Shown here: piece after piece, positions 7,169 through 52,496 of the stretch | Position numbering within the stretch: position 1 is the first letter of the stretch | How the letters are laid out: each line of letters opens with the position of its first letter | Source of the DNA: Pararhodobacter sp. | GTDB lineage: Bacteria; Pseudomonadota; Alphaproteobacteria; Rhodobacterales; Rhodobacteraceae | Direction: 5' to 3' | DNA: 64,000 bases | NCBI RefSeq assembly: GCF_034676545.1 | Contig: NZ_JAUCBZ010000011.1 | Coordinates: 47,433-111,432, forward strand | The notes under the pieces: generated by a model | The model's database searches: none | Seen by the model: the letters and a program-made list of their open reading frames with translations, nothing else | Told to the model about the DNA's origin: nothing | Position numbers and translations under genes: made by a program

Positions 7169-7309
7169 TAGCTCGTCTGCCGCCGTGCGGTTGAACTATT
7201 CGACGAGTATGTCCATCTCGCCTCGAGCCTGCGCCGATGGTAGGTAAGGTATAGGCCTGATTGTCGGTTTGCGTGAAGCATCGGCATTGCGCGAACAGGG
7301 GGGATAAGG

Positions 7310-16736: not shown

Positions 16737-16794
16737 TGGGTAAAATTCCCTTGTTTTATTGGACTATTCTTGGGTTCCGTGGTAGGTCTTCGGC

Positions 16795-28860: not shown

Positions 28861-29220
28861 TTGATGGCGCGGCGAACGAGGCGGCTTTGGACGGATGAGG
28901 AGAAGCGTTCGATCTGCTTGCAGACGACGGCGCCCGGCGTCTCCGTGGCTCAGGTGGCGCTTCGCTACACGGTGAATGCGAACCTGATCTTCAAGTGGCT
29001 GCGCGATCCCAAGTATCGGCCCGCACCCCGGTCTGGGGCAGAGGATCCCGGTTTGCGCTTTCTGCCGGTGGAGATCGTCGCAGAGGCGAAGGGGCCGATT
29101 GCGATGCCCGCCGCATTGAACCACATCGAGATCGAGGTGGCGGGCGGTCACCGGATGCGGATCAGCGGCAGCTATGATCCTGAGGCGCTGGCGCGGCTTA
29201 TCCGGGGCCTGACAGCGTGA
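28861..29220 (+). CDS. tnpA: IS66-family TnpA (orf1)
   Basis: [43 protein letters not shown]. Overlaps tnpB by 4 nt. Confidence 0.8.
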
Positions 29221-29564
29221 TCCCGGTCCCGGCCAACACGCGGGTCTGGCTGGCGGCCGGAGTGACCGACATGCGCAAGGGCTTTGCGGCACTGGCCGCG
29301 CAGGCCGAGGCGGTGCTGAAGCAGGATCCGTTTGCCGGGCATCTCTTCGTCTTCCGTGGCCGTCGGGGCGATCTGGTGAAGGTCATCTGGTGGGATGGCC
29401 AAGGGGCCTGCATGTTCATGAAGCGGCTGGAGAAGGGCCGCTTCGTCTGGCCCTCGGCCAAGGAGGGCAAGGTGGCTTTGTCGCCTGCGCAACTGTCGAT
29501 GCTCTTGGAAGGCATCGATTGGCGGGCCCCGGAACGGACGTGGCGGCCTCTGGCTGCGGGATAA
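29217..29564 (+). CDS. tnpB: IS66-family TnpB (orf2)
   Basis: [22 protein letters not shown]...[36 protein letters not shown]. Confidence 0.85.
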
Positions 29565-29622
29565 TCGCCTGCCCCGCGCGAGAAGGATTCCCACAAGGAA
29601 TACAGTGGGATAAACTCCTTAC

Positions 29623-31122
29623 ATGCTCGATCAGACCCTGAATTTGCCGGAAGACCCCGAGGAGCTGCGCAGCTTCACAACGCGGCTCTTGGCCGAGGTC
29701 AAGGCGCAAGCGATCCTGATCGAGAAGCTGCGCCATCAGCTCGCGGGACACCGGGCGCATCGGTTCGGGGCCTCCTCCGAGACAGCGGAGCAGCTTCAGT
29801 TGGCGCTGGAGACGAGTGAGATTGCCGCCGCTGCGATGACCGCACGAATGAAGCTGCCAGACGTCGAAGAGAAGGACAAACCGAAGCGCCGTCCGATCCC
29901 CGACCGCATCCCGCGGATGGAGGTGGAACTCAGCCCAGGCGCAGATGCCTGTGCCGATTGCGGCGGGCGCCTGCGCCGGATCGGCGAAGACGTGACGGAA
30001 GAGCTGGAATACGTTCCGGGCCGCTTCATTGTGAACCGCATTGTCCGCCCTCGACTAACCTGTGCCTGCTGCGAGAAGTTTGTTCAGTCTCCGCTGCCAT
30101 CGCGGCCCATCGAGCGCGGTCGTCCCGGGCCGGGTCTGCTGGCCCATGTGCTGGTCAGCAAGTATGCGGACCACCTGCCGCTTTACCGCCAGAGCCAGAT
30201 CTTCGACCGCGAAGGGCTGGACCTCGACCGGTCCACCCTGGCCGATTGGGTTGGCAAGACCACCGCCCTGCTTGAACCCGTCGCAGACGCCATCGGCCGC
30301 CATGTCCTGTCGGCCGAGGCGATCTTTGCCGATGACACGCCCATCAGCATGCTCGCGCCCGGCACCGGCAAGACCCAGACCGCCCGGCTGTGGACCTATG
30401 CTCGTGACGAACGCCCCTGGGGTGGAACGGCACCGCCCGCGGCCTGGTATCGCTTCTCCGGCGACCGCAAAGGCCAGCACCCCAAAGACCACCTCGCCCG
30501 ATACCGCGGCTGGATGCATGCCGATGGCTATGCTGGCTTCGAGGACCTCTACCGTTCCGGGGCCATCCGCGAGGTCGCCTGCATGGCCCATGTCCGGCGC
30601 AAGTTCGTCGACATCCACCGGTCGCAGGGCTCCCCCATCGCCGAAGACGCCATCGGCCGGATAGCCCAACTCTACGCCGTGGAAAAGGAAGCCAGAGGTT
30701 CGCCACCGGATGTCCGCGTCGAACTTCGAAAGGCACATGCGGCCCCGGTGTTCGACGATCTCGAGGGCTGGCTGGCCCTGCAACTCACCACGATCTCGGG
30801 AAAATCCCCGCTCGCCGCCGCCATCCGCTATGCCCTGACCCGCATGGAACGCATGCGTCCCTACCTCGACCACGGCATCCTTGAGCTCGACAACAACGCA
30901 GCCGAACGCGGCATGCGCACCATCGCCCTCGGCCGCAAGAATTACCTCTTCGTCGGATCGGAAGCGGGCGGCAAGGCCGCTGCCATCGCCTACACGCTGA
31001 TCGAAACGGCCAAACTCAACGCCATCGATCCCCACGCCTGGCTCGCCGACACCCTCGCCCGCATCCCGGAATACAAGATCACGAAGGTCGATGACCTGCT
31101 GCCTTGGCGCTGGAACGGATAG
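29623..31122 (+). CDS. tnpC: IS66-family transposase TnpC (orf3)
   Basis: 499 aa. CADCGG...CACCEK, FADDTPISML, HADGYAGFEDLY, LELDNNAAERGMR. Confidence 0.9.
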   Translation: MLDQTLNLPEDPEELRSFTTRLLAEVKAQAILIEKLRHQLAGHRAHRFGASSETAEQLQLALETSEIAAAAMTARMKLPDVEEKDKPKRRPIPDRIPRMEVELSPGADACADCGGRLRRIGEDVTEELEYVPGRFIVNRIVRPRLTCACCEKFVQSPLPSRPIERGRPGPGLLAHVLVSKYADHLPLYRQSQIFDREGLDLDRSTLADWVGKTTALLEPVADAIGRHVLSAEAIFADDTPISMLAPGTGKTQTARLWTYARDERPWGGTAPPAAWYRFSGDRKGQHPKDHLARYRGWMHADGYAGFEDLYRSGAIREVACMAHVRRKFVDIHRSQGSPIAEDAIGRIAQLYAVEKEARGSPPDVRVELRKAHAAPVFDDLEGWLALQLTTISGKSPLAAAIRYALTRMERMRPYLDHGILELDNNAAERGMRTIALGRKNYLFVGSEAGGKAAAIAYTLIETAKLNAIDPHAWLADTLARIPEYKITKVDDLLPWRWNG

Positions 31123-31142
31123 CGGTCAGACCGGACGGTTAC

Positions 31143-31588
31143 GCATGAACTCGGCTGGGCCAAAGATATTCGCAACCGATCATTTCTGGATCACGGATCC
31201 AACGCTCCACCGACAGTCGCGTGGTTTCGGTGATCTCAAAGCGCACGGGCTTGCGCGTCTTGCTTTGCGTGACTGAAGCACGTTCCTTAACGCGGCCTGC
31301 GGCGTAAACATCGTTCACTTTCAGGCAGACCAGATCGCAACCCCGGAGCTTGCAATCGATAGCCATGTTGAACAGCGCGAGATCGCGCTTGTTGTCCGCC
31401 ATTTCCAGCCGCACACGGATCGACCAGACATGTTTGGGCAACAGCGGGCGTTTCTGGCCGACGATGCGGCCCTTGTTCCAAGGCGCGCGTGTGGGACGAA
31501 GGGCGGGAAGTGTTTCGATGGACATAGCTTCTCTCCTGTCCACCATGCCCGCCACGTCTTCGGCTTTGCCGACAAGGCAATATAACAT
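31143..31588 (-). pseudogene. 5' part of the IS66-interrupted tyrosine recombinase gene
   Basis: MSIETLPALRPTRAPWNKGRIVGQKRPLLPKHVW...RGCDLVCLKV...EYLWPSRVHA. The frame then runs into the IS end and stops. Likely start is the Met at 31525. Confidence 0.8.
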
Positions 31589-31702
31589 CGACCACCGCTT
31601 ATATACTGATAAATCGTATCGGGCGGAAAGCAGCCCTTGGCTTGTGAAGAAACGACGTCCGCTTTCCGGGTCGAGTCAGAACTGCGGTTCAGTTCCCTCT
31701 TC

Positions 31703-32008
31703 TCACCGGACCTGTATGGAATCGAGATAGGCGATCAGTGCCAGGACCTCGTCATGCTCCAGCACGAACTCCGGCATTTCGTGACTGACCATGATCCCTT
31801 CTGCCAGTGCCTCTTCCAGGCTCTCGATCGGATAGAGCCTGCCAAGGAAGCGGAACGGTATTGCCCGAGGATTGGGGCTGTGATCCTCGGCGGTGACGCC
31901 GTGGCAGCGGGCGCAGTTCTCCTGCACCAGGTCAGAGCCATCGCCTATCGGGTCGGCACTGACCGGGGCCGCAAGGACAACCAGCGCTGCGGCGAGGTAT
32001 CGCATCAT
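31703..32008 (-). CDS. small periplasmic c-type cytochrome
   Basis: Signal peptide MMRYLAAALVVLAAPVSA and heme motif CARCH. GGAGG lies 7 nt upstream of the ATG at 32008. Confidence 0.7.
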   Translation of the reverse strand: MMRYLAAALVVLAAPVSADPIGDGSDLVQENCARCHGVTAEDHSPNPRAIPFRFLGRLYPIESLEEALAEGIMVSHEMPEFVLEHDEVLALIAYLDSIQVR

Positions 32009-32189
32009 CTCTGCGCCTCCCGTGCGTTCAGAAGGAACTGGTAGCGGGTTATGTCTCGAAAACTGAGGCAACAGCACAATCGGACCCAAACCGAGATAGA
32101 CGGATGACGCATGAAGTTTGGGCGCTTCTGCGCTGTTGTCGGTGCAGATCTGCGCGCTCGTCAACCGCTTGGCCCTGCGTATTACCGCG

Positions 32190-32505
32190 TCACCCATCAT
32201 TTCCGATGCTCCTGCAACCCGAGTTCTGCCCGGATCCAGCCGAAGGCGTAGTCGCCCATCGGATCGTCACCATGCCGCCTGACGCGGGGATTTGCCCCCC
32301 AAGGCAGGGATCGCCGCGATCGCTGTGGAAGATGCAGCCCCGAAGCGGGGACCGCGGGGCGATGGACATTTTCAGTGCCCGGATCGCCAGATCGCGTTTC
32401 ATGCGGTTGCTGACGGCCCAGCATGATTACGTGCCGCGAAAGCCCACTCGTCAACGCGATCCGCACCGCATCCCTGCAAAATTCATCCGTCCTGCCTGTG
32501 TCCAT
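32190..32505 (-). pseudogene. frameshifted IS3-family transposase remnant (orfA HTH piece plus orfB catalytic piece)
   Basis: One frame reads EFCRDAVRIALTSGLSR (orfA-like). Another reads RDLAIRALKMSIAPRSPLRGCIFHSDRG (orfB DDE region). Neither is intact. Confidence 0.5.
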
Positions 32506-32599
32506 GGTTCATCTCCTTTGCTGCACATTACGTGATCAAAGCAGCGGCACCAATCCGCAACAGGTCCAGGCACATCGCAGGAAGGTGACGCGCTCCGCA

Positions 32600-33785
32600 C
32601 GTTGAGGAACGTCTGATCAACGGCTTTGGCTGCGCCAAGATGGCCGCGTGACTCGTTGTGCCACCCGAATACCTGCGTCCGTAGACTGTTTTCGTGCATT
32701 TCGAGCCGCCTGAGCGGCCCTTTCGTGGGTTTCAGGCAGGCTCGTCCTCATGCCATCAGCCTCCGTCGCACCAGGAACAGGTTGCCGAGGGCGAAGAGTG
32801 TGAACAGCTGGGCGCGGTTCTTGGCGAGGCCGCGGTAACGGGTCTTCACGTGGCCGAACTGACGCTTGATGATGCGGAAAGGATGCTCGACCTTCGCGCG
32901 CACCATGGCGATGATCCGGTTGATCCGTTCGTCGACCGGGTGCAGCGAGCCACCCTTCGGGGCCTTGCGCATGACGCCCCAGACCTTGCCCGGCCCCGCG
33001 AATGCGGCCTCCCGGTCGGCGCTGACATAGCCCTTGTCGGCCCAGACCGAGGTTTCTTCGCCGTGCAGCAGTTCGTCCCAGACCTGGCTGTCGTGCAACT
33101 TGGCGGTCGAGGTTTCCAGACTGTGGGTCACGCCGCTGTCCGCATCCACGCCGACATGTGCTTTCATGCCGAAATACCAGTCGTTGCCCTTCTTCGTGGA
33201 CGACATCTCGGGGTCGCGGGCCTTGGCCTTGTTCTTGGTCGATGACGGCGCGTCGATGATCGTCGCGTCCACCAGCGTGCCCGAGCGCAGCGTGATACCC
33301 TTGTCGGCCAGATGGGCGTTGACGTCGGCAAAGATTGCCTCGGTCAGCCCGTGCCGTTCCAGCAGGTGCCGGAAATTCAGGATCGTGGTCTCGTCGGGAA
33401 TGCGGTCGTCACCCAGTTCGATCCCGGAGAACCGACGCATCGCCTCACTGTCGTATAGGATTTCCTCGGCCATCGGGTCGCTCAGCGCATACCAGTGCTG
33501 AAGAAAGTAGACCCGCAGCATCGTTTCCAGCGGCATCGGCGGGCGCCCGCCCTTAGGTCCGACCTTGGGGTAATGCGGCGCGATGAGCGCCAGCAGCCGC
33601 CCCCACGGAACAACCGCCTCCATCTCCGTCAGGAACTGCTCGCGCCGCGTTACCTTCTTCTTCATCGCGTCTCGAAGACCGGGAAAGGCAGGCTATTTCG
33701 GCATCGGCGGGGCTCCTCGTCGCGCCCCGCAAATCCTATCAGATCACGCCAAAACGCGCAGGTTTTTCAGACGTTCCTTGAAGCT
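32600..33785 (-). mobile_element. IS5-family insertion sequence (about 1.19 kb); ends approximate
   Basis: Single DDE transposase ORF flanked by imperfect inverted repeats sharing GGAACGTCTGA (32606-32616 and the reverse complement at 33768-33778). No target duplication could be identified. Confidence 0.7.
32748..33665 (-). CDS. IS5-family DDE transposase
   Basis: 305 aa. GGRPPMPLETMLRVYFLQHWYALSDP..., LVDATIIDAPSSTKN, GMKAHVGVDADSG, ADKGY, VEHPFRIIKRQFGHVKTRYRGLAKN. Confidence 0.9.
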   Translation of the reverse strand: MKKKVTRREQFLTEMEAVVPWGRLLALIAPHYPKVGPKGGRPPMPLETMLRVYFLQHWYALSDPMAEEILYDSEAMRRFSGIELGDDRIPDETTILNFRHLLERHGLTEAIFADVNAHLADKGITLRSGTLVDATIIDAPSSTKNKAKARDPEMSSTKKGNDWYFGMKAHVGVDADSGVTHSLETSTAKLHDSQVWDELLHGEETSVWADKGYVSADREAAFAGPGKVWGVMRKAPKGGSLHPVDERINRIIAMVRAKVEHPFRIIKRQFGHVKTRYRGLAKNRAQLFTLFALGNLFLVRRRLMA

Positions 33786-33972
33786 TCCATTGGACGGCTC
33801 CGCCGTAACCACCGATCTCCGGGCCCAGTCTTCTGTCGAGGAGTCGCGGGCGGATTGATCCACGTCATTGCTAAATTCTTAGCATCTGCAAACATTCTCA
33901 AATCTCGGAGGACGGTCGGTGTGGACTTGGCAATCAAGATCGTCCCTGCCTCGGCCGATCGCGGGGTGTGAT

Positions 33973-34680
33973 ATGAGCGAGATAATCACGTTGAGTTGGC
34001 CCACGGGAAAAGGAGCTTCGGAGATCGCGTTGCGTACTGTCGTGGCGGCACTCTTCTGTCTATCAGCCAGTGTCTCAGGCACGGCTCCTCTCTGGACGGT
34101 CATGCTCGGGTTTGCGTCCGGCCTGGCGCTATACATCCTCTGGCCGAAAGCCCGGTTCCCTGCGGGGACAAGCACGATGCACCGCGGCAGCGCGGTCATC
34201 GGGCCGGACATCATCGGCGTCGGGCTGCTTGCCCTGTTCGTGGCGCTTCCGGTCTGGATCGGCCGGGCCGAAGGCGCCGAGGGGCTGCACGGTTCGGCGC
34301 TGCTGATCTGGCCACTTCTGCCTGCGCCACTGGCCCTGCTGTTCGTCGCGGCGTCAAACGCCTGTTTCGGGCTTTGGGTCGGTCCTGCCGGGCTGAGCAT
34401 CAGCAGCCTGCGGAGAACCGAACGGATAGGCTGGGACGAGATCATCGGCTGGCGGCCCTGGCGGCGCGACCGGTTGAGGGTATTTCGTGCCGTGGCACCG
34501 TTCCTGCCGCCGGGTGCTGCCGGTGCGGTGCTGCTGGCGCGGGCCAGCACGGGGGTCGAGATCGTGCTACGGACCGGCCGCAGCCGGCGCCTTCCCCGGG
34601 AAGGGTTCGAAAACGGGCTTGCCCGTGTCCAGCGCGCACTGACCGAACGCGGCCTGCCAAGGCTGGAGCCGGCACATTGA
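33973..34680 (+). CDS. multi-pass membrane protein of unknown function (first gene of the secreted-protein operon)
   Basis: Several hydrophobic segments, then a soluble C-terminal part (LSISSLRRTERIGWDEIIGWRPW...). Ends 16 nt before the next ORF. Start taken at MSEIITL. Confidence 0.5.
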   Translation: MSEIITLSWPTGKGASEIALRTVVAALFCLSASVSGTAPLWTVMLGFASGLALYILWPKARFPAGTSTMHRGSAVIGPDIIGVGLLALFVALPVWIGRAEGAEGLHGSALLIWPLLPAPLALLFVAASNACFGLWVGPAGLSISSLRRTERIGWDEIIGWRPWRRDRLRVFRAVAPFLPPGAAGAVLLARASTGVEIVLRTGRSRRLPREGFENGLARVQRALTERGLPRLEPAH

Positions 34681-34696
34681 GGAGACGCATCTGACG

Positions 34697-37600
34697 ATGA
34701 AAGGTTTTCTGGCCATGACTCTTCTGCGGGCGTTCTGCCTGGCGGTCTTCCTTCCTGCGGCGGCTTGGGCGCAGGCGCTGCACACCTTGGGCGAAGCCGA
34801 GGCGCAGGTTCCCGCCGACTGGGCCGAGGCGGGCCGGCGGGGTGATCGCGAGGTCGATTTCACCGGTCCCGGCGGGGCTTATCTGATGGTCCGCTGGTGG
34901 TTCCCGGACGAGCCGCTGACTGGCCACGATGGAGAGCTGTCGGCCGAGACGCGCAGCTTTCCTGCCGGGCCCGCGCTGGTCAGGCAATCGCGCACCGGGC
35001 CGCTGGTGCAGGTTACCATCGCGTTCGAGAGACTGAACCGGAATGGTGAACGGCTGCTGCTGACGGTGGGAGGCAGCGATGCCGATCCGCAGGCGCTGGA
35101 GGCGCTGCTGCTGCCGATCGCCGAGTCGGTGCGATTTGCCGGCGACCCGGCCTCGGCCGCGACGGTCGTGCCGCAGGCTTCGCCGGGCACCGCGGCATCG
35201 GGCGGCCGGAACCATCACGCCGAAGGTGGGTTTTCGCTGGCCATTCCGGCGGGCTGGACCATCCATCCGGTCAGTCCTGACGAGGGGCATGGTCTGGTGG
35301 CGCTGTCGCCGGCGGGTGATGCGCTGCTGCATGTCGCGGTGTTCGATCTGGCGACGGCCGACACGGTGCTGCTGTGGTGGGACCGTTTTCTGGCCGAAAC
35401 CGCAATCCCCACCGATATCCTCGGCGAAAGCCATGATCCCTTCGCCGGGATCGAGGGGGTGGCTGTCACGCTGGAGGCCGAGGTCTATCCCTTTGCCGGC
35501 ATCACCCTGCCGTTCCGACGTGGCAATGCCTGGATCTTCACCGGCAGCGCGTCGGAGGGCAACGTGATGCTGGCTTCCCTGCACGCCGCCGACGCACCGC
35601 CCGCCTTGCGGCAGGAACTGGCGGACATGGCGGCGAGCTTTGCCTTCGGTCAGCCGGCGCCGACAGCAACAGCCGAAGCGCCCCCTCCCGCGCCCGCACC
35701 TGCCGCCCCCGCGGCGGCGCTGTCGGCGGCCGAGACGCTGGCGCTGGTGGCCAGCGGCTTCGAGGGCGGATGCACCGCGCGCGACGTGGCGGGCGATGCC
35801 TTTGCCGGTGCGCTGGCCGCGATGGCCCTTGCGCCGCAGGTGGTGGCGGGCTGCGCGGCTGGCACGATCGAAGCGGCCGTCGTCTCGCTGCCGCAGGACC
35901 CGCGCCAACCGCAAGCCGCGATGCTGTGGCTCCGAGCATTGACGGCGGCGGGTGGCAGGGACGTGGCGCTGGCCGACCCCGCGCGCCGCCTTCTGGTCCT
36001 GCTGCGTGCCGATGGCGCCGCCGGGTTCCGCATCGAGGTTGCGGATCTGGCCGCTACAGCGCCCGCCGCGCATGCTGCTGCCAAATCCACGGCCGAGCCC
36101 GCAGAGCCGCCGGGCCAGCTGTTCGCGGGCGTGGAATCCCCCGACTGGGCGCTGCATCTTGCGCGGCGCGGGCAGGCGGAGTGGACCCGGTTCGAGGGCG
36201 GGGCCTTTGTCGCCGAGGTGCCGGCCGGCCCGGATTTCCGCGTTACGGGCTTGCGCACCACGGCGCCGATAGTGCGGCTGCCTTCGGCATCGGACGGCTT
36301 TGCCACGCGGCTGTCGATCGACCTCGACACCGCGCGGCTGGACAACATCGTCATCGCGCTGGTTGAACCGGGGCTGGAAGACCAGCGTGACTGGCACGAC
36401 CACGAAGTCTGGCTGGCGGTGGAACGGGACGGCGATGTCGTGCCCGAACTGGTGCTTGCGGTGCAGCAGAAGATGCAGGGCCGCATGCCGCTGCCCGACG
36501 CGACGGCGCTTGCCGGCCTGCAGATCGAGATGCGGCCCGACGGGCTGATCCTTGTCTCGAACGGTACCGGCGCGGTGCTGCTGGAGGGGCGGCTTGCCGC
36601 CCTGCCGGGCGATGGCCCCTTCCATCTGCAGATCTCGGCCACCGCGCCGTCGGGTGAGGTTACCGCACTGCTGGCCCTGCGCGGTGTGCGGATGGAGGAT
36701 GTGGCGGTCGCCGCCGATGCCGACCCGGGCGCGCTGTTGGCCGATGCGCCCCAAGAGGTGGAGCTGTTCGACGGCCGCACCCCCGGCCCGCATTTCGCGC
36801 TGCACGGCCCCAAGGGCTCGGCCCCGCTGATCAGTGTTGGCGACGGCCTGCACGTTGACGCCGCGGGAGCAGCGCTGCAGGGCCTCGGGCTGTTTTCGCC
36901 TGAACCGGTCATCTGGCTTGACCGCTTCGGCCCCGGCGCCAGCGCCCGCCTGCGGCTGGAGTTCGACCCGGCTGCGACGCAGGGGGTGCAGGTGGCGCTG
37001 GCGGCGTCGATGTCCTACGCCGATCAGGAGCCGCACCGCCCGCGCGCCCTGCTGCACTGGCGCAAGGTGGGCGATGCGCATTACCTGACCCGCACCATCG
37101 ACACGGCCGAACCGCTGCACGCGGTCGTGCCAGGCATCCCCGCCGTGGTTGATCTGGTGCTGACGCCCGAAGGGGTGCAGATCGTGGCCGAAGGCTTCCC
37201 CGACGACGTGCTGCCCTGGCCCGTGCTGCAATCGGGTGCCGGCCTGCGGCTTTATGTGCTGGCGATGGGCGACCATGACAGCCAGGCCGCGCAGATGGCC
37301 ATGCGCCGGATTACCCTCTTGCGCATGCCCGCCGCACCCGCGGTTGCCGACGACCTGCCCCCCTCTGCCCTAGAGCCGCTTCCGGTGGTGCGCCTGTTCC
37401 CAGATCCCGCCGCCCCTTGGGAAGGCCACGGCGTCGCCGGCCTGACCTTCGAAGAGGCGGGGCAGTTCACCGCAGATGGCGCGGTGGTGGTCCTAGCGCC
37501 CGAGGGGTATCAGGGCGGCCGCGCCGGGGTGCTGTCGTCGGCCCCGGTGGCGGTGCTGGACCGTCGGCTTGACCGCACGGCCTATCGCCTTGACTTCGCC

Positions 37601-38107
37601 TTCGATCCTGCCGCCACGGATGGCGCATATGTCACCCTGTCGCAGACGCCCCAGCCAGACATGGACGACAGCGGCGAGATCTTCATCTCCCTCGTTCGGC
37701 AGGCGAAGGGGCGGCTGGCGGAGGACTGGCTCTTGCATGTGCAAGGCGGGTTCTACGCCACCTGGACCCGCCGCATCCCAGCGGCCAAGATGGCGGGCTG
37801 GGACGGGCGGCTGACCCTGCGCATCGACAGGGGGGCCGCGACCGTCTCGCTGCCTGGCATCACCGATCTTCACGCGCCCGATTTAATCGGGTTTCGCAAG
37901 GGCGTGTCGCTGTTCGCCACCGTCCAGTCGCGGTCCTTCGATCCTTATGGCGCCGCGAAGATGACGCTGCGGTCTGTGGACGGCGGCTGGATCACCCCGT
38001 CAGGCATGACGGCGCGGTCGCGGCTGCTGCTGATGGGCACCAGGGACTTCGATGCCGAAGAATATGTGCGGCTGTTGCGCGCCGAGCTTGAGGAGACCGT
38101 GCCATGA
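34697..38107 (+). CDS. 1136-aa secreted protein of unknown function with internal repeat modules
   Basis: Signal peptide MKGFLAMTLLRAFCLAVFLPAAAWAQA. Recurring xPxGW modules (QVPADWAEAG, LAIPAGWTIHPV). Internal duplication RLRLEFDPAATQGVQVAL / YRLDFAFDPAATDGAYVTL. Long antisense ORFs here are high-GC artefacts. Confidence 0.65.
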   Translation: MKGFLAMTLLRAFCLAVFLPAAAWAQALHTLGEAEAQVPADWAEAGRRGDREVDFTGPGGAYLMVRWWFPDEPLTGHDGELSAETRSFPAGPALVRQSRTGPLVQVTIAFERLNRNGERLLLTVGGSDADPQALEALLLPIAESVRFAGDPASAATVVPQASPGTAASGGRNHHAEGGFSLAIPAGWTIHPVSPDEGHGLVALSPAGDALLHVAVFDLATADTVLLWWDRFLAETAIPTDILGESHDPFAGIEGVAVTLEAEVYPFAGITLPFRRGNAWIFTGSASEGNVMLASLHAADAPPALRQELADMAASFAFGQPAPTATAEAPPPAPAPAAPAAALSAAETLALVASGFEGGCTARDVAGDAFAGALAAMALAPQVVAGCAAGTIEAAVVSLPQDPRQPQAAMLWLRALTAAGGRDVALADPARRLLVLLRADGAAGFRIEVADLAATAPAAHAAAKSTAEPAEPPGQLFAGVESPDWALHLARRGQAEWTRFEGGAFVAEVPAGPDFRVTGLRTTAPIVRLPSASDGFATRLSIDLDTARLDNIVIALVEPGLEDQRDWHDHEVWLAVERDGDVVPELVLAVQQKMQGRMPLPDATALAGLQIEMRPDGLILVSNGTGAVLLEGRLAALPGDGPFHLQISATAPSGEVTALLALRGVRMEDVAVAADADPGALLADAPQEVELFDGRTPGPHFALHGPKGSAPLISVGDGLHVDAAGAALQGLGLFSPEPVIWLDRFGPGASARLRLEFDPAATQGVQVALAASMSYADQEPHRPRALLHWRKVGDAHYLTRTIDTAEPLHAVVPGIPAVVDLVLTPEGVQIVAEGFPDDVLPWPVLQSGAGLRLYVLAMGDHDSQAAQMAMRRITLLRMPAAPAVADDLPPSALEPLPVVRLFPDPAAPWEGHGVAGLTFEEAGQFTADGAVVVLAPEGYQGGRAGVLSSAPVAVLDRRLDRTAYRLDFAFDPAATDGAYVTLSQTPQPDMDDSGEIFISLVRQAKGRLAEDWLLHVQGGFYATWTRRIPAAKMAGWDGRLTLRIDRGAATVSLPGITDLHAPDLIGFRKGVSLFATVQSRSFDPYGAAKMTLRSVDGGWITPSGMTARSRLLLMGTRDFDAEEYVRLLRAELEETVP

Positions 38108-38442
38108 CGACCCGTCCCCGCCTTGCCCTTGCGGCCCTGATCGCGCTGGCCCAGCCGGCGCTGGCGCAGACGGTGGCCGATCCGGCGAACATCTTCGGCC
38201 TGCCGGGCGGCGACGGCACCGCCGGCATCGAATCCGGCACGGCGGTTATCGACAACTCGGCCGCCGTGGCCGAACTTGTCCCGCTGCGCCAACGCTTTGC
38301 CGAGTTTCGCGCCGCGGGCTTTCCGCTGCCGGATGTGGCCGATCTTGATGCCTACAACCCCGAAACCCTGCTTCAGGCGGCGCGGCTGATCGAGGGGCAG
38401 GAAATCCCTGCACCGCAGCGGCCGACCTGTCGATGTTCCTGA
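38104..38442 (+). CDS. 112-aa signal-peptide protein (possibly the N-terminus of the next ORF)
   Basis: MTTRPRLALAALIALAQPALAQT. ATGA overlap with the upstream gene and a 10-nt overlap with the downstream ORF. Confidence 0.5.
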   Translation: MTTRPRLALAALIALAQPALAQTVADPANIFGLPGGDGTAGIESGTAVIDNSAAVAELVPLRQRFAEFRAAGFPLPDVADLDAYNPETLLQAARLIEGQEIPAPQRPTCRCS

Positions 38443-39704
38443 ACGCGCGCATCGCCGATACCAACCTGCGCGACAGCCTGGGCACGGTGGACCGCCCGCT
38501 GTGGATGACGACGAAGGTTCTGGCGACCATGACGCTGCCCGATCCCGTGGGGCTGGGCGGTGACTTTACCGACTGGCTGGCGGGCCTGAAGAACCGCTTC
38601 TCGCGTATTGGCCCGCTCTACAACGCCTGGCAGTCGGCCGAGATCGTCAAGGAACACTGGGGCGATACCATCGCGGTCAAGCACGGCAACTGGGCGCAGC
38701 AGGTCTATGACGAGGCCCGCCGCGAGGACTGGTCCGCCGAGGAGATCGGCACCGAGATCGTCAACCTGCAGGCCCAAAGCAACAGGATCCTGGCCGAGAT
38801 CAACCGCGACACCACCGCCTTCGAGGCTGCCGTCAAGGCCGAGGAGGACCGCCACGCCGCCGCAGACGCCGAACAGGACGCCGCATATCAGGCCAAGCTG
38901 GCCGCCATCGCCGAGGACGAGGCCACCGGCGGCGAACGCAAGCGGCGCGAGCAATGGCTGCGCGAACATGCCGACAGCGGCGAGCCGAAACCCGGCATGG
39001 GCCGGATCATCGACCCGATGCCCGGGCCGGGCAGCGTGTTCGAGCCGACGCGCAATCCGTCCGAGATCAGCTATGAATGGGCGATCACCGAAACCGAACC
39101 GGGCGGCGCCTACTACCGCGAGGAGCGGGCGCGGGCGCTTCAGGAACTGCAACTGGCCCGCCTGGCCGAAAAGCTGCAATACGAGGCGACGCTGACCAAA
39201 CTCGGCTTCGATTTCGACATGACGATGGAGGATCGGCTTGAAACACTCGCCGAGCTGCAGGTCGAGCGAGAGACGCTACACCGGATGAACCTGCCGATGG
39301 CGAACGGCAACTGCAAGGACATCGCCAAGCCGGGCAAAGTCAAGGAAAAGCTGCCCGAGATCGGGATGGAGACGCTGATCGCCCTGCCGCATGACGAACT
39401 GCTGAACGTGCTGAGCGTGCTGAAGATCCTGCCGCCGGACGACATGATGACCTGCATCTGCCAGCGCGCAGCCTATGGCCAGATGGGCACGACGCAGATC
39501 TACCACCCCGACACCTACGGCGAATACGACCCGCGCTATGAATGCAACAAGCCCGGCCCGCCCTGCATCGTCTCGGGCTATGGCTGCACGCGCAACCCGT
39601 TGCCGTCCGACCCCGCCATCTGGAAAGACTGCGCCATCGGCACCGACGTGGACGGCATGACCGTGCCGCAGGCGATCATCGAGCGATTGAACAACGGCGA
39701 ATGA
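38433..39704 (+). CDS. 423-aa protein: acidic coiled-coil centre and Cys-rich C-terminus; no signal peptide of its own
   Basis: Central AEEDRHAAADAEQDAAYQAKLAAIAEDE... Seven Cys fall in the last ~110 aa (NCKD, TCIC, YECNKPGPPCIVSGYGC, KDC). Confidence 0.55.
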   Translation: MFLNARIADTNLRDSLGTVDRPLWMTTKVLATMTLPDPVGLGGDFTDWLAGLKNRFSRIGPLYNAWQSAEIVKEHWGDTIAVKHGNWAQQVYDEARREDWSAEEIGTEIVNLQAQSNRILAEINRDTTAFEAAVKAEEDRHAAADAEQDAAYQAKLAAIAEDEATGGERKRREQWLREHADSGEPKPGMGRIIDPMPGPGSVFEPTRNPSEISYEWAITETEPGGAYYREERARALQELQLARLAEKLQYEATLTKLGFDFDMTMEDRLETLAELQVERETLHRMNLPMANGNCKDIAKPGKVKEKLPEIGMETLIALPHDELLNVLSVLKILPPDDMMTCICQRAAYGQMGTTQIYHPDTYGEYDPRYECNKPGPPCIVSGYGCTRNPLPSDPAIWKDCAIGTDVDGMTVPQAIIERLNNGE

Positions 39705-39732
39705 CCGGCCGGCGCAGGAAAAGGATCCCATC

Positions 39733-42312
39733 ATGACCACACAAGCAACCCGTCTTGCCTGCACCGCCGCGGTGGCTCTCGCGCTGTCGCTGGGCCTTGC
39801 CGCGCCCCTTGCGGCCCAATCGTCGACCGACACCGTCGCCATCGCCCGCAGCGAGGCGCCCGCGGGCTGGTCGGGGCAGATGTTCCGCGGCATCGCCTTC
39901 GCGCTGCCCCCCGGCTGGCAGGAAATGGGCCGCAGCGACGAGAACGTGATCTACTTCGGCGGCGATGTCGCCACCCGCACCGGTCCCGGCTTCGGCCTGA
40001 TGCTGGAAGACGACCCGGACCAGACCTTTTCGGGCAGCACGATCGTCGAATTGGGGCAGGTGACGTTCGAGAACGGGCGGGTCTTCCGTCGCATTTCCTC
40101 TTCGGTCACCGAATCCGGCGTGGAGATGTGGGCCGAGATCCTGATCTCGAAGGTCCCGGTGTCCGGAGACGATCATCTGGTCATCGTGCAAAGCGCCTAT
40201 GGCGACGCACTTGACCCGTATCGGTCGGTGCATGCCGGCATCCTCGCCTCGCTGGACCTGCCCGCGCCGGGGTCCGTGCTGCGCGAGCCGGTGCTGGGCG
40301 GTGCCTTTGTCGCCCCGGTCGAAGGCACATGGGACACGAAAAGCCACAGCGACGACGAGGTGCTGACCTACGAACAGCGCGACCTGGCCGGCGAGGTCAC
40401 GCTTTACCGCTATGCCGCCGATCCGGCAACGGGCCATTTGAACAGGTGGTATCTGCCGTCGGATGTCGCGGGCCAGCCGGTCACGCTCATGGACCAGCCG
40501 GCGCTGCTTTACGAATGGACCCAGCGGTCGAACCGGTTCTCCGACGGCAGCGACGCCGATACCACCACCCGCATCTTCGTGTTCGAAACCTGCCTGCCGG
40601 GCCCCGATACGCTGGCCATCGGGTTCGAGGGGCTGCCCTCGTTTTACCGGTCGGAACAGGTGGCGCAGCTTGTGGACGCGATAGAACCGGCGCGCGGCGA
40701 TGCCGCTTGCGGCGCGGCGAACCTGCCAGCCGGGGCCGTTGCCGGTTCCCCGGGAGCCCGCCCGGACGGGCTGGCGGGTTTCCAGGCCGTTGGTGTGCCG
40801 GCCCCCACCGCGCCGGCCGCAAAGGCCGAAGGGACGGCGCTGAATGGCATCCTGACCTACAGCGCCCGCGAGGGATGGATCGCCATGTCGGGCGAGGGCA
40901 CGCTGACGCTGATGCACCCGGACGGGCGGGGGGTGGTCACGGTGGCGCGCGGCGCCGCGGTCCTGCCGCCAAACGGCCTCGCCGCGCTGGTGCCGCCCGG
41001 CCGCCTGCCCAGTTTCTTCGGCGACTATTACATGGAGTGGACCCAGTTCGGCTGGCCCTCGACTTCGGCCGAGTTCATGGACAACGGCCAGCCGGTCACC
41101 GGCTGGCACTTCCTGAACATCTCACGCAACTGCCTGCCGGGGCAAGAGCCGGTGGCGTTGTATTGGGCCGGGATCAACAGGTTCCTCAGCGGAGACACGC
41201 TGCGCGACTTGCTGATGGGCCTGCGGTTCAACTGGCCCGAGGGGATGGAGGAATGCGCCCTGAAGGATGCGGGAGTGGGCGCCGCCTTCTCTGGCCTGCC
41301 CGCAGAGCCCGCGCCCGAGCACTCGGCCGCGCCCGAACCCGCGCCCCAACCCCAGCCGCCCGTCGCCGCAGAGGCCGAACTGCTGCTGCCCCCGCCGCCG
41401 CCCCCGGTCATGCCCGTAGAGGAACCGGCCGAAGACCCGGACGCCTTCATCGAAGGCGAGGCCGGCTACACGCTTTACCGCAACGGGCGCTATGGCACCT
41501 TCATCGAATACCCCGCCAGCTACTTCCGCGCTGAGCCGCCGCCGGACAGCGGCGACGGCCGCACCTTCGTGTCGGCGGACGGCCAGTCGCAGTTCTATGT
41601 CTTCGCGCAGTACAACGCCCTTGGGCTGACACAGGACGAGATGATGCGCCAGGATATCGAACAGGGTGGCACCGACAGCGTGACCTACCGCAAGTCGGGC
41701 GAAGGCTGGTATGTGCTGTCGGGCTATGGCGATGGGGGCGTGATCTACTACCGCAAGGTCATCCTCGATCCCTCGGGCCTGGTTCAGGTGTTCGAGATCG
41801 CCTATCCGCCGTCCCTGAAGGAGGCGTTCGATCCGGTCGTAACCTACATGGCCAACAGTTTCGGCCCCGGAACCTCGACCGGCGACTGGACCCAAGGTGT
41901 CGATCCGGCCTGGGATGACGAGGTCACGAAAGAACCTGTTCGGGTGGACCGCCTGACGAGCCCCGCCCGCGGCACAGACTTGCGCAAGGCGCTGATGGCG
42001 GCCGCGCGCGGACCCATCGAGGCGGAAATCGGCCTAAGCATCGTCTTCGTCGCCTCGGTCCTGCGCACCGACGGGACCTGGGCCTATCTGCAGGCCGTCC
42101 CGCACAACCCCGACGGCAGCAGGATCAACTGGGCGAATACACCCTACGCCGCCGAGATGAAGAAGGGCGTCATGAGCGATACCGCCATGGTCCTGATGCG
42201 GAAGGTGCAGGGGGAATGGACCGTCGTCGACCACATCTTTGGGCCGACCGACGTCTACTGGCTGAACTGGGCCAATGCCTACGAACTGGACGAGGCGCTG
42301 TTCACGCCCTGA
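39733..42312 (+). CDS. 859-aa secreted protein of unknown function
   Basis: Signal peptide MTTQATRLACTAAVALALSLGLAAPLAAQS. xPxGW modules (EAPAGWSGQ, FALPPGWQEMG). Pro-rich linker PEPAPQPQPPVAAEAELLLPPPPPPVMP. C-terminal module GYTLYRNGRYGTFIEYPASYF...GDGRTFVSADGQSQFYVFAQYN. Confidence 0.65.
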   Translation: MTTQATRLACTAAVALALSLGLAAPLAAQSSTDTVAIARSEAPAGWSGQMFRGIAFALPPGWQEMGRSDENVIYFGGDVATRTGPGFGLMLEDDPDQTFSGSTIVELGQVTFENGRVFRRISSSVTESGVEMWAEILISKVPVSGDDHLVIVQSAYGDALDPYRSVHAGILASLDLPAPGSVLREPVLGGAFVAPVEGTWDTKSHSDDEVLTYEQRDLAGEVTLYRYAADPATGHLNRWYLPSDVAGQPVTLMDQPALLYEWTQRSNRFSDGSDADTTTRIFVFETCLPGPDTLAIGFEGLPSFYRSEQVAQLVDAIEPARGDAACGAANLPAGAVAGSPGARPDGLAGFQAVGVPAPTAPAAKAEGTALNGILTYSAREGWIAMSGEGTLTLMHPDGRGVVTVARGAAVLPPNGLAALVPPGRLPSFFGDYYMEWTQFGWPSTSAEFMDNGQPVTGWHFLNISRNCLPGQEPVALYWAGINRFLSGDTLRDLLMGLRFNWPEGMEECALKDAGVGAAFSGLPAEPAPEHSAAPEPAPQPQPPVAAEAELLLPPPPPPVMPVEEPAEDPDAFIEGEAGYTLYRNGRYGTFIEYPASYFRAEPPPDSGDGRTFVSADGQSQFYVFAQYNALGLTQDEMMRQDIEQGGTDSVTYRKSGEGWYVLSGYGDGGVIYYRKVILDPSGLVQVFEIAYPPSLKEAFDPVVTYMANSFGPGTSTGDWTQGVDPAWDDEVTKEPVRVDRLTSPARGTDLRKALMAAARGPIEAEIGLSIVFVASVLRTDGTWAYLQAVPHNPDGSRINWANTPYAAEMKKGVMSDTAMVLMRKVQGEWTVVDHIFGPTDVYWLNWANAYELDEALFTP

Positions 42313-42439
42313 GGCCAGCGTCGCCAGACGCGGCCTTGCCGGCACATTACCTGTGCGCAGGGGCTGGTTCCCGGTCCTTGAACCTGACCGTTGCCGCCCC
42401 GAAATCGGCTTCTGGATACTGAAACGAAAGGAAATCGAC

Positions 42440-43237
42440 ATGGAAAGAGCGCCCCCCGGACCAGAGACGTTCCCCGTCATGAAGGGCAAGGTGGCGATCG
42501 TCACCGGTGCCGCAATGGGCATGGGCGAGGCGACGGCGCGACTGTTCGCCCGGGCGGGCGCCAAGGTCGTGCTGACCGACTTCAACGCCGAGGTGGGCGA
42601 GAAGGTTGCGCAATCGATCCTGGACGCCGGTGACGAAGCTGCCTTTGTCCGCACCGACGTGTCGATCTCCGACGAGGTGAAGCAGACGGTGGCCTTTGCC
42701 GTCGAACGCTTCGGGCGCCTTGACGCTGCGGTGAACAATGCCGCGCTGAGGCCCGACAACGCTCCAGCCGCCGAATTCGACGAGGCTTACTGGGACCGGC
42801 TGATGTCGGTTGACCTCAAGGGCACTGCACTGTGCATGAAGCACGAACTGGCACAGATGGTGGCGCAGGGCGGCGGCGGGTCGATCATCAACATCTCGTC
42901 GGTCTCGGGCTTCCGCCCGCAGCCCAACACGATGGCATATGTCGCCGCCAAGCACGGCGTGAACGGCCTGACCAAGAACGCGGCGATGGAATACGGCCGC
43001 CACAACATCCGCGTGAACGCCATCGCGCCGGGTGCCATCGACACGCCGATGCTCAAGGCCTTGCTTGACGAGATGGGGCTGGACCGGGGTGAGTTCGCGA
43101 AAAAGCTCAGTGTGCTGGAGCGTTTCGGCCAGCCCGAGGAAGTGGCGCAGGGCAGCCTGTGGCTGGCGTCCGACGCGTCGTCCTTCGTGACCGGCACGGT
43201 GCTGTTCGTTGACGGGGGATACACTGGCGCGATGTGA
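42440..43237 (+). CDS. short-chain dehydrogenase/reductase (SDR) family oxidoreductase
   Basis: VTGAAMGMGEA (TGxxxGxG), NNAA, catalytic YVAAKHG (YxxxK). ATG at 42440 follows AAGGAAA. Confidence 0.85.
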   Translation: MERAPPGPETFPVMKGKVAIVTGAAMGMGEATARLFARAGAKVVLTDFNAEVGEKVAQSILDAGDEAAFVRTDVSISDEVKQTVAFAVERFGRLDAAVNNAALRPDNAPAAEFDEAYWDRLMSVDLKGTALCMKHELAQMVAQGGGGSIINISSVSGFRPQPNTMAYVAAKHGVNGLTKNAAMEYGRHNIRVNAIAPGAIDTPMLKALLDEMGLDRGEFAKKLSVLERFGQPEEVAQGSLWLASDASSFVTGTVLFVDGGYTGAM

Positions 43238-50285: not shown

Positions 50286-52496
50286 TCAGAATTCCCGGTC
50301 CTTGGCATGTGTCCGGTCATGAACAGGCGCGCGCGCATGTTCCGGCGGCTTGTTCGCGGCCTCGGCAGCCATCCGGCGCTCTGCAGCTTCGACCTCATGG
50401 GCGCTGAGGCCGAGGGAAGGGTGTTCCTTTGCCGCGGAAACAACGGCCGCTGCCATAGCCTGGCGGGCGCTCGCGTCGGGAACATCCTTGGCCAAGGCAT
50501 CGGTGCGCCCGGCGGCCATGTCTTTCAGGACGGAAGCGCCATAACGCTCCTTCATCTCCTCAGTGAAATCCCGTGCTTGCGTCTCATTGCGGAAGACGAC
50601 GGAGCCTTGCTGGGCATGGAGTTTCGCCATCTTGTCCAGGGCCTCGACCATGGGATCACGGGCTCGCGACAGATCGACGCCGCGAGCGGACTGGATCATC
50701 TCAGCGGCGCGTTCGTAGAAGCGATCCAGGCGTTCGGCGGCCGCGCTGCGGCCTTGCGGGTTGTCGAGGTCATAGCCATGACGCTTGGCGACGTCGCTGA
50801 GATCGGATTTCACCCAGGCTTCTTCTTGGCGGGCGTTGGCGGCACCAGTTTCGAGACGCTTGCCAAGTTTTTCGGCGTCGATGCCTGCGAGGCCGGCGTT
50901 GAGGGCCAGACTTGCCTGCAGATTGCCGGCACCGCCGGTTTGAAGTGCCGTTTCTTCGCCTGCTATCGACAACGTCGTTGGGTTGATCGCCGTGCTGTAG
51001 AGTGTCGAACGTGGAGGGGCCTCGCGCCCGGCCTGATCTCTGTCGAGACCAAAGGCTGCCGCGGCTTCCTTGGCGATACCCAGCATTTCGGATCGCAGCT
51101 CTTCCTGTTGCTCGGACGGCAGTCGGTCGATCCGGGCATCCGACTGCGCCACCCAGGCGGAGATCGTCCGCGCGGGATCAGCCGTGAAGTCGCTGTGCAA
51201 CCTTTCGTCTTCGACATGGGCCGTGAGAACCGGGCTCTCGGCCAAATGCTTGGCCAAGGTCTCACTCAGGGGCCCTTCATCCGGGAACTTGGCCAACACC
51301 TCAACACTCCCATCGCGGCCATAGGAGGTGACGGCCAGGAGTTCATCGGGCAGAAAGCCTCTCGAACCTTCGCCGTCGACAAACCGGCCGGTGCCAAGGG
51401 TGGCTTCGGCATCGGCGATATGCTCGGCCACGACCTGCCGAAACGCGGTATCGGCGACCAGACGTTCGGCAAGATCGCGACTCGCTTCCGTGTCTCGGCC
51501 AAGGGTCAGGACGAGTTGGGCCTCTTCGCCCGCGTAGATCGCGGTTTCCGGGCGGGGGAGTTCCGGCTGTTCGCGATGCTCCAATACGAGGCCCGAGGGC
51601 ACGCGGTCCGCATCATCGTCCGTGTCATGCTCCATCGCCGCGGCCCGGCTGATGGCAATCTCGAGCCCCTCTTCGCCGCCTTCGTAGAAATCCCAGGCGT
51701 GGCGCAGGGCATCGCGGCTGGTCGCAAAGGCCCGGTCCGAAAAGCTGATCTCCGTCTCTCCTTCCGGCACCCTTGCCTCAAAGCCTGCATGTAGACCCCT
51801 GTCGGTTGCGACAGTCACTGGGCGCAATTCAACATTCCGGTCAGTGGTCACCCAATCTCCGGTCGCAACCACTTGCGGCTTCTCCGCCGTGATCACCTGA
51901 CCAACCTGCGCTTCCGCTTCCACCACCCCTTCCCGCGCCTTCACTGCCGCCTGCAAAATGGGTCCCGGTGCAGGTTCCTCCGTCCGATCTGACCAAAGGC
52001 TTGCTGCCTTCTCGGGTTCGCGGCGTGCGTAGGCCTCGAGGTCATCTTTCAGCACGGCATCCAGCCGCTCGACAACGGTTTCACCGTCCCGACCGGCTTG
52101 GACCCTCTCAAGACGCTCGGAGATCGAAGCCTCCATCGCCGCCAGGAACCCGGCCCGGAATTCCGCATCCGGGGCATGCGAGTCCGGCAGCGATTTGAAA
52201 TACCGCGTTTCGCCGCCTTCGTGTGTCCCATGGAGTTCCGTGCGGGCCATGGTCCGGGCGGTGTTGCCGTCGACATGGGTCACCGAAGGCCGCTCAACCG
52301 GATCGGCCCGGAAGAAGGCCTCGCCGGCAAGACGCGGGTCTTCGAACTCCTGTGAAGACCCGGAGAAGGTCAAGCGGACGGAGAAGTATTCCTTCTTCCG
52401 CTCCGCGGCCCCAATGGTTGCACCTGCTTCGGGTTCTTGGGTCGCGGCGCGAACTGCGGACTCTTTCAGATGCTGGGCGTCAATGTCCTGATCCAT
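50286..52496 (-). CDS. 736-aa T4SS-operon protein sharing only the C-terminal module of the MOBQ relaxase (no nuclease domain)
   Basis: C-terminus RLETGAANA...FYERAAEMI...FRNETQARDFTEEMKERYGASVLKDMAAGRTDALAKDV...AVVSAAKEH aligns by eye with relaxase residues encoded at about 21100-21600. The N-terminal ~500 aa lack an HUH/His-triad motif. The stop lies 2 nt before the virD4 ATG. Confidence 0.65.
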   Translation of the reverse strand: MDQDIDAQHLKESAVRAATQEPEAGATIGAAERKKEYFSVRLTFSGSSQEFEDPRLAGEAFFRADPVERPSVTHVDGNTARTMARTELHGTHEGGETRYFKSLPDSHAPDAEFRAGFLAAMEASISERLERVQAGRDGETVVERLDAVLKDDLEAYARREPEKAASLWSDRTEEPAPGPILQAAVKAREGVVEAEAQVGQVITAEKPQVVATGDWVTTDRNVELRPVTVATDRGLHAGFEARVPEGETEISFSDRAFATSRDALRHAWDFYEGGEEGLEIAISRAAAMEHDTDDDADRVPSGLVLEHREQPELPRPETAIYAGEEAQLVLTLGRDTEASRDLAERLVADTAFRQVVAEHIADAEATLGTGRFVDGEGSRGFLPDELLAVTSYGRDGSVEVLAKFPDEGPLSETLAKHLAESPVLTAHVEDERLHSDFTADPARTISAWVAQSDARIDRLPSEQQEELRSEMLGIAKEAAAAFGLDRDQAGREAPPRSTLYSTAINPTTLSIAGEETALQTGGAGNLQASLALNAGLAGIDAEKLGKRLETGAANARQEEAWVKSDLSDVAKRHGYDLDNPQGRSAAAERLDRFYERAAEMIQSARGVDLSRARDPMVEALDKMAKLHAQQGSVVFRNETQARDFTEEMKERYGASVLKDMAAGRTDALAKDVPDASARQAMAAAVVSAAKEHPSLGLSAHEVEAAERRMAAEAANKPPEHARAPVHDRTHAKDREF

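Follow-up and report, generated by a model that had tools for sequence, protein, structure and literature searches.

What is the tightly packed cluster of large exported proteins carried by a 64,000-nucleotide (nt) stretch of Pararhodobacter sp. DNA (contig NZ_JAUCBZ010000011.1, positions 47,433 to 111,432; hereafter the window), and what might such a cluster do? Our analyses identified it as an operon of four genes, here named A, B, CD and E (Table 1), which is uncharacterised and horizontally mobile and in which one gene has been split by a one-base deletion. A preliminary description of the locus had listed five tightly packed open reading frames (ORFs) on the same strand. Their coordinates and junctions (a 16-nt gap between A and B, an ATGA overlap between B and C, a 10-nt overlap between C and D and a 28-nt gap between D and E) were confirmed exactly, but not the count of five genes, as ORFs C and D are the two halves of a gene that orthologues carry as a single one.

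As the region also contains many overlapping antisense ORFs of 200-900 amino acids (aa), the long frames might be chance open frames in high-GC DNA, an artefact against which the preliminary description had itself warned. This explanation is already refuted. The codon-position bias is strong and confined to the called frames (GC content of 0.75-0.88 at the third position versus 0.44-0.59 at the second), and the ratio of non-synonymous to synonymous substitutions (dN/dS) against orthologues of 8-40% divergence was 0.21-0.40 (NG86), which together indicate real genes. In addition, homologues down to 25% identity keep the domain boundaries and the invariant cysteines, and folded domains are present in the AlphaFold2 (AF2) models, leaving virtually no room for a chance origin of the frames. 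Shine-Dalgarno motifs (GAGGAG or AGGA) precede B, C and E. A promoter scan of the cluster returned no promoters, terminator-like sites within it occurred only at the shuffle expectation, and neither the Rfam nor the tRNA scan, both run over the complete window, gave a match. The three clear Sec signal peptides reported earlier are indeed present in the sequence, all of the AxA type, on B, CD and E; together with the invariant Cys pairs in the alignments of these three exported proteins, they fit an oxidising compartment.

The split of CD was traced to a single missing base. In DNA alignments with two related loci (L006 and L003), GGAAGATCC or GGACGATCC corresponds to GGAAATCC in the window, and in a three-frame translation the orthologous protein passes from frame 0 into frame 2 where EGQE is followed by DPCTAAADLSMFLNAR. 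Four near-identical copies in reference genomes (L014-L017) are all intact at this site, and all intact orthologous loci examined have a single gene of 464-572 aa in the CD position. No Shine-Dalgarno motif precedes the start codon of D. Programmed frameshifting was considered and rejected, as no slippery heptamer is present there and the additional base is found in all orthologues. ORF D in the window has no signal peptide, and since the frameshift parts the CD signal peptide from the Cys-rich domain, the system is probably inactivated in the window, or else the deletion is an assembly error. The IS5 element described below, close upstream of gene A, adds to the impression of an inactive copy. 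A second disrupted gene was observed elsewhere in the system: the E orthologue of a metagenome-assembled genome (MAG; L012, 9583-12592) is frameshifted into ORFs of 129 aa and 863 aa.

In the intact CD protein, a signal peptide is followed by a helical domain, then by a coiled coil and, at the C-terminus, by a Cys-rich module. The seven cysteines that had been noted in the last ~110 aa of the 423-aa protein were found within residues 294-400 of D; a putatively disulfide-rich module of ~80 aa (CxC...YHPDT...PCxVxGxGC...PLP) was recognised in CD, and the family alignment keeps a CxC...C...C...C...C pattern. In some relatives (Table 1) the Cys-rich module (LPHD...CxC..AGYG...) directly follows the signal peptide and precedes a long unrelated region. 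As its position varies, the module appears to be a mobile domain.

The operon lies within an 8.6-kb block that has 92-99% nucleotide identity to loci of other Paracoccaceae. Copies with 96-99% identity to the block are carried by Phaeovulum veldkampii DSM 11550, Tabrizicola sp. SY72, an Albidovulum MAG and a Paracoccaceae MAG, which is indicative of recent transfer between genera, and by its alignment boundaries the block appears to be the unit that moves between genomes. The G + C content of the cluster is ~0.70, against ~0.60 in its flanks. An SDR (short-chain dehydrogenase/reductase) gene follows the block, and an insertion sequence of the IS5 family, with 17-nt inverted repeats at 32605 and 33778, lies 130 bp upstream of gene A; the IS5 segment is absent from the same site in L003 and L014. 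A circular form of L003 was ruled out by self-blast.

The window as a whole represents a VirB-type conjugative element with relaxase, VirD4 and VirB4 genes, and its type IV secretion system (T4SS) region is ~80% identical to that of Gemmobacter plasmids. The preliminary description had placed the cluster between an IS5 element and the cargo of a conjugative element; the IS5 element and the conjugation genes are present as described, but the link to conjugation is incidental, for reasons given below.

Several further observations concern the surroundings of the block. A small cytochrome c cluster (31139-32505, minus strand) lies upstream of the operon in the window, and likewise in L015 and L017. 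A diverged copy of this cluster (87% nucleotide identity) is found downstream of the operon in L003 (8932-9892), L006 (8488-9059) and L014, where a remnant of a 102-aa gene is also retained upstream of the operon. This layout suggests that duplicated cytochrome c loci have recombined around the 8.6-kb block. Two IS66-family elements (15964-18447 and 28861-31122), both encoding a DDE transposase and a TnpB-like orf2, form with the IS5 element the borders of a mosaic region in which the relaxase gene (19790-21643) lies. The relaxase gene adjoins the gene for a 697-aa protein with a C-terminal UPF0149 domain (21805-23898), and VirD4 adjoins that for a 736-aa protein without Pfam or PADLOC match (50286-52496). 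A defence island (1857-12775), whose genes are listed in Table 1, is carried on the same element.

Table 1. Positions of the operon, its predicted domains and other features. Positions are those of the window unless another locus is named.
Feature	Position	Strand	Description
Gene A	33973-34680	+	235-aa polytopic inner-membrane protein
Gene B	34697-38107	+	1136-aa exported protein
Three homologous B domains	36104-38104	+	~200 aa each; residues 470-675, 676-885 and 886-1136
Gene CD	38104-39704	+	one gene of ~533 aa, here split into ORFs C and D
ORF C	38104-38442	+	112 aa; 5' part of gene CD
Frameshift site	38400-38406	+	a base that every orthologue has is lacking between 38402 and 38403
ORF D	38433-39704	+	423 aa; 3' part of gene CD
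Gene E	39733-42312	+	859-aa exported protein
Three tandem alpha/beta domains of E	39820-41307	+	residues ~30-525; two conserved Cys pairs
Pro/Ala-rich disordered spacer of E	41308-41442	+	contains PPPPPP; pLDDT <50 at residues 511-566
E4 domain	41443-41877	+	residues ~571-715; GYxxYxNxRYGTxIxYP...GDGR
E5 domain	41965-42309	+	residues ~745-859
Putative transferred block	33843-42478	+	8.6 kb; blastn boundaries against L003, L006, L014 and L016
IS5-family insertion	32533-33842	-	DDE_Tnp_1 + DUF772 transposase at 32748-33665; context, outside the system
Type IIG restriction endonuclease-methyltransferase	1857-4922	-	
Type II methyltransferase	4919-6670	-	
Gabija GajA	7310-9328	+	E=6e-226
Gabija GajB	9641-11518	+	E=7e-233
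SoFic-like Fic protein	11720-12775	-	
Relatives with the Cys module right after the signal peptide	L029 561-2693; L032 2319-3557; L037 3105-5255; R. aestuarii P0037		

How widely is this operon distributed, and which of its genes belong together? Word searches of 5.8 billion proteins returned only a few clusters per protein (B, 7; CD, 14; E, 16). Two Paracoccaceae clades whose B proteins are ~40% identical both retain the gene order A-B-CD-E, which was seen in more than 10 independent loci, and 25 loci were detected when metagenomes were scanned with the CD profile. Subsequently, the window and 21 non-redundant related loci were compared by tblastn and all-against-all ORF clustering, a neighbourhood survey of the kind that the preliminary description had recommended. 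A B-like gene adjoins a gene with the Cys-rich module in all 22 loci, often with translational coupling, while homologues of A and of E were each found in 9 of the 22. The search for a conserved fifth component by ORF clustering in these loci yielded only antisense shadows of the four genes and no other neighbour family. The loci span G + C contents of 36-70%, and thus the B-CD pair is not confined to one lineage. The usual order is B followed by CD, except in two loci with the order CD, (A), B, and two loci have E in divergent orientation; most of the distant members have a recognisable signal peptide. The flanking genes vary and include those for LysR with molybdenum-cofactor biosynthesis, TetR with a two-component system, UreD, and kdsA-kdsB-ABC transporter on one side with mraY-murF-murE-ftsI on the other. 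This last arrangement, seen in L018 (14383-21360; chromosomal-type flanks), is the only instance with cell-envelope genes next to the operon: the operon and a gene for a 347-aa protein are convergent, mraY-murF-murE-ftsI follow beyond that gene, and kdsA, kdsB and the ABC transporter lie on the other side. The 347-aa protein may be SGNH/GDSL-like, as judged by its GGSNS and DGLHY motifs.

None of these genes matched a curated family. Searches of Pfam, NCBIfam and PADLOC with all five ORFs gave only sub-threshold noise (for PADLOC, nothing at E<=1), so that no confident profile match to a well-characterised family, the other outcome against which the preliminary description had staked its account, was obtained at threshold in these three collections. 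No Pfam family was found when every member of the B and CD alignments and 30 distant B-like or CD-like relatives were searched, and searches of PDB sequences with B, CD and E (phmmer and profiles) produced only chance or coiled-coil matches. The earlier impression that enzyme, adhesin, RHS, autotransporter and toxin motifs are lacking holds for such families in the window proteins as well as in 30 diverse relatives, where the sole RTX match (E=4e-4, one member) is at chance level.

Concentrating on the individual proteins, B comprises a signal peptide (cleavage after AWA), N-terminal modules, a two-Cys segment (C359 and C386, both invariant in the family alignment) and three tandem beta-sandwich domains. 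The internal duplication noted earlier in this protein (at residues 753 and 964) is real and is in fact a triplication of ~200-aa domains, whose mutual homology was evident from hhalign probabilities of 97.3, 96.8 and 88.2%. An AF2 model of residues 470-1136 (the C-terminal 667 aa, ~60% of B), built from 8 close sequences, was all-beta and of low confidence, with a mean predicted local distance difference test score (pLDDT) of 58.6. Foldseek searches of the PDB with this model retrieved laminin LG domains, neurexin LNS domains and tandem-repeat galectins with E values down to 6.5e-9; the 111 matches at E<=1e-3 also included clostridial neurotoxin binding domains and PL7 lyases. The fold of this part of B is thus probably ConA-like or LamG-like. 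No match to Pfam Laminin_G or Gal-bind_lectin was found for B, and its N-terminal modules gave a weak match to TIGR03931 (E=0.0015, below the cut-off).

For E, an AF2 model built from 17 sequences had a mean pLDDT of 71.5, ranging from 53 to 91 over 10-residue blocks within domains (80-90 in the first domain, 53-88 in the second and third). The second and third of its tandem alpha/beta domains (residues 179-325 and 360-525) are homologous (hhalign 95.7%); among the cysteines, three (287, 467 and 508) are invariant and a fourth (326) almost so. Foldseek searches of the PDB with whole E retrieved PsbP, CyanoP, TplEi/Tli4, Tsi3, PA3488, SciW/EagT6, LpqN, Apa, MTC28 and DcrB, with a probability of 1.0 for most matches and of 0.93-0.94 for LpqN and DcrB; the target template modelling (TM) scores of PsbP, CyanoP, DcrB, LpqN, the Eag chaperones and Tsi3 were 0.38-0.67, and the modelled domains show the alpha-beta-alpha sandwich of the PsbP/Mog1p/DUF1795 type. 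No sequence-profile match to Pfam PsbP, DcrB/DUF1795 or LpqN was found even at E<=1, and the E profile retrieved nothing from the PDB sequences. E is accordingly best placed in the PsbP/Mog1/DUF1795 superfamily at the level of its predicted fold. As a side observation, the best viral match of the E model in BFVD was a 392-aa 'Lipoprotein' of Siphoviridae sp. ctezl47 (A0A8S5QKN3; E=1.9e-9, 24% identity, root-mean-square deviation 3.2 A over 152 columns), and thus one of the E domains seems to have a relative encoded by a phage.

These models also bear on the idea that the two giant proteins share recurring xPxGW modules with PsbP/DcrB-like folds. The fold impression stood for E, but not for the large repeats of B, whose matches are LamG/galectin/ConA-like, and the motif itself is hardly recurrent, occurring once in B (as IPAGW in the N-terminal modules) and twice in E. 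Homology between B and E through this motif was examined and rejected: the family profiles aligned with 5% probability in hhalign and no domain pair exceeded 20% (B1 and B2 against E1-E4 all remained below this value).

The poly-Pro linker and distinct C-terminal module described earlier for E were both located, the former as a PPPPPP run at residue 553 within a spacer whose length varies across homologues, the latter beginning with GYTLYRNGRYG from residue 578. Two domains, E4 and E5, follow the spacer, with predicted beta6-alpha-beta4-alpha and alpha-beta2-alpha-beta2-alpha patterns, respectively, in the AF2 model; E4 is strongly conserved, with invariant Y, N, R, D and G residues. A hidden Markov model search of 1.84 billion representatives with the E profile returned 4273 matches at E<=1e-3, and most of the best 150 of these cover only E4 and/or E5. 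Each of the two also occurs as a stand-alone protein of ~140-190 aa with a signal peptide. In nearly all matches listed (proteins of 106-1992 aa), E5 ends within a few residues of the C-terminus, a position that would fit an anchoring or sorting domain. The host proteins carry lipase or esterase, CarboxypepD_reg, hemopexin, PAN, WSC and CBM96 domains, and among 54 proteins surveyed for partner domains, SH3_3/SH3_4 (6), Sel1 (5), PG_binding_1 (5) and PG_binding_2 (2) were the most frequent, which points to the peptidoglycan compartment. Neither domain had a match in Pfam, NCBIfam or the PDB sequences (phmmer and profile). The named members are without exception annotated as 'hypothetical protein', and those named in the protein collection belong to Rhodobacterales. 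A tblastn search of plasmids with E4-E5 detected matches in Skermanella, Rhizobium, Shinella, Methylobacterium, Cetobacterium and Mycolicibacterium, again only as 'hypothetical protein', and the same search of GenBank phages found no match. By these sequence comparisons, E4 and E5 are widespread domain families that Pfam does not model.

Gene A had been described as encoding a polytopic membrane protein, and hydropathy analysis bears this out, with ~4 hydrophobic segments in residues 16-139 followed by a C-terminal PH-like domain. The match of this domain to bPH_6 (PF10756) scored 17.2 bits, under the Pfam gathering threshold of 22; as a sub-threshold match recurs in four of six A homologues (best E=4e-4), the resemblance is probably real.

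What, then, might the four proteins do together? The preliminary description had suggested an envelope or surface multiprotein assembly, and an extracytoplasmic multiprotein unit is still the best reading of the signal peptides, Cys pairs, translational coupling and synteny. Within this frame, we tentatively favour a non-enzymatic binding scaffold that would be periplasmic or associated with the cell wall. B and CD would form its obligate core complex, in which B would use its lectin-like domains to bind a ligand, either glycan or protein, and CD would contribute a disulfide-rich module carried on a stalk of helical or coiled-coil structure. E may serve as an accessory tether to the cell wall via E4 and E5, whose placement in this compartment is based on their fusion to SH3b, PG_binding and Sel1 domains in other proteins, and the proline spacer could hold the PsbP-like domains off the wall for partner binding. 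A might anchor or regulate the complex at the inner membrane through a cytoplasmic PH-like domain. The net role of the operon would be structural, protective or recognition-related in the envelope, not catalytic.

Several points weigh against this scaffold. A and E accompany the pair in only 9 of 22 loci each, although many contigs are incomplete, and the cell-wall link of E4 and E5 consists of domain co-occurrence in a minority of proteins. The fold call for B depends on the convergence of Foldseek matches, since its model is of low confidence. Furthermore, a catalytic domain unseen by sequence searches could hide in CD, in the N-terminal 470 residues of B or in E4.

Other roles must be weighed against the same evidence. 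If B and E were exported past the outer membrane, the operon could encode a secreted or cell-surface adhesin or matrix assembly acting in attachment, aggregation or biofilm formation. Proteins for adhesion or receptor binding typically contain LamG/galectin-like domains in tandem, the proteins of the operon are of modular build and large size and include a Pro-rich spacer, the relatives derive from activated-sludge MAGs (judged by isolate names), and E5 occupies the extreme C-terminus of many large secreted proteins, as sorting or anchoring domains do. However, the 22 loci show no conserved outer-membrane translocator, type I, type II or type V secretion system or sortase-like neighbour, E4 and E5 pair with peptidoglycan-binding modules, which are periplasmic in diderms, and no Ig-like, cadherin or RTX adhesin repeats are present; we thus regard an adhesin as unlikely. 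A periplasmic protective or immunity module, in which arrays of PsbP-like domains would sequester incoming toxins that act in the periplasm (effectors of type VI secretion systems (T6SS) or contact-dependent inhibition, or bacteriocins), in the manner of the T6SS immunity proteins Tli4/TplEi, Tli5 and Tsi3, and which would spread with defence cargo, seems somewhat less likely again. It would agree with the top Foldseek matches of E (TplEi/Tli4, 5h7z and 4r1d; Tsi3; PA3488), with the recent transfer of the block and with the Gabija, type IIG restriction-modification and SoFic systems in the window. The PsbP fold is, however, a generic binding scaffold, with comparable scores for PsbP itself, DcrB and LpqN, E exceeds the known immunity proteins 2- to 3-fold in size, and the conserved core is B with CD, not E; moreover, no effector, lipase, VgrG or T6SS gene is adjacent in the window flanks or related loci, and PADLOC found no match.

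The location of the cluster on an element with relaxase, VirD4 and VirB4 genes might also suggest an accessory function in conjugation, such as mating-pair stabilisation or surface or entry exclusion. Gemmobacter and Rhodobacter plasmids with the same T4SS region nevertheless lack the cluster, a megablast search of plasmids with the cluster gave no match, and no T4SS genes were found in the recovered flanks of related clusters, which instead adjoin molybdenum-cofactor, two-component, kdsAB and cell-division or cell-wall genes; the association is therefore one of cargo. As the block is also bounded and flanked by insertion sequences, a conjugative role is highly improbable and is largely refuted by this distribution. 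A more ambitious reading, which we put forward as possible but doubtful, would make the B-CD pair the core of an undescribed extracytoplasmic system in phylogenetically diverse bacteria; the disulfide-rich module and the triple lectin-like protein would work together as ligand and receptor, or as effector and carrier, for recognition between cells or defence of the envelope. E4 and E5 would then be new, abundant domains for targeting to the cell-wall compartment, with E5 as a C-terminal anchor or sorting signal.

Whichever role applies, the operon is conserved, under selection and actively exchanged between genera, yet matches no curated family. Uncharacterised operons of exported proteins are common; this one contains at least four families that are not in Pfam, namely the B-type triple beta-sandwich protein, the Cys-rich CD module, E4 and E5. 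E4 and E5 together account for more than 4,000 proteins, including secreted proteins with lipase, hemopexin and CBM domains, and characterising these families would annotate a sizeable share of the 'dark matter' of the bacterial envelope. P. veldkampii DSM 11550, which can be cultured, carries an intact copy of 98.8% identity.

How does the operon compare with known systems? By our sequence searches it appears unclassified, belonging to no named family or system at the sequence and system level. Its parts are built from known binding folds, and it is new at the system level only, with no novel mechanism demonstrated. B resembles tandem LamG/LNS and galectin arrays (laminin LG1-3, neurexin-1alpha, galectin-8/-9) in having three predicted all-beta domains of ~200 aa (Foldseek E 6.5e-9 to 1e-6), but differs from them in having no Pfam match, a low-confidence model and a bacterial periplasmic context. 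A is comparable to bacterial PH-domain membrane proteins (bPH_2/bPH_6; YdbS/YdbT-like), in which N-terminal transmembrane helices likewise precede a PH-like domain, although all of its Pfam matches are sub-threshold and it has no bacteriocin or ABC-transporter partner; PH-domain membrane proteins have been implicated in the transport of enterocin DD14 (PMC8657885).

For E, the closest comparisons are with exported proteins of the PsbP fold. The T6SS lipase immunity proteins Tli4/TplEi (5h7z, 4r1d) and Tli5/PA3488 (5xmg) were its best Foldseek matches, over 330-390 columns. The TplEi alignment is longer than one PsbP domain and thus probably covers two tandem domains, so that the predicted E shares the two-domain periplasmic PsbP-like organisation of Tli4/Tli5-type immunity proteins. 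The TM score to TplEi/Tli4 is only ~0.24, and the arrangement of the domains therefore seems to differ; E also departs from Tli4 and Tli5 in its low identity to them (12-15%), in its length (859 aa against about 300-380 aa) and in having no cognate Tle effector or T6SS genes nearby. Its architecture of at least three tandem domains, a poly-Pro spacer and two more domains sets it apart from PsbP-type proteins and is absent among the Foldseek matches. At the level of the single predicted domain, E nevertheless resembles the extrinsic photosystem II protein PsbP, CyanoP, Mog1p, Salmonella DcrB and the mycobacterial proteins LpqN, Apa and MTC28 (best target TM score 0.67, for 2vu4) and, like most bacterial members of this group, is exported and carries no catalytic motif.

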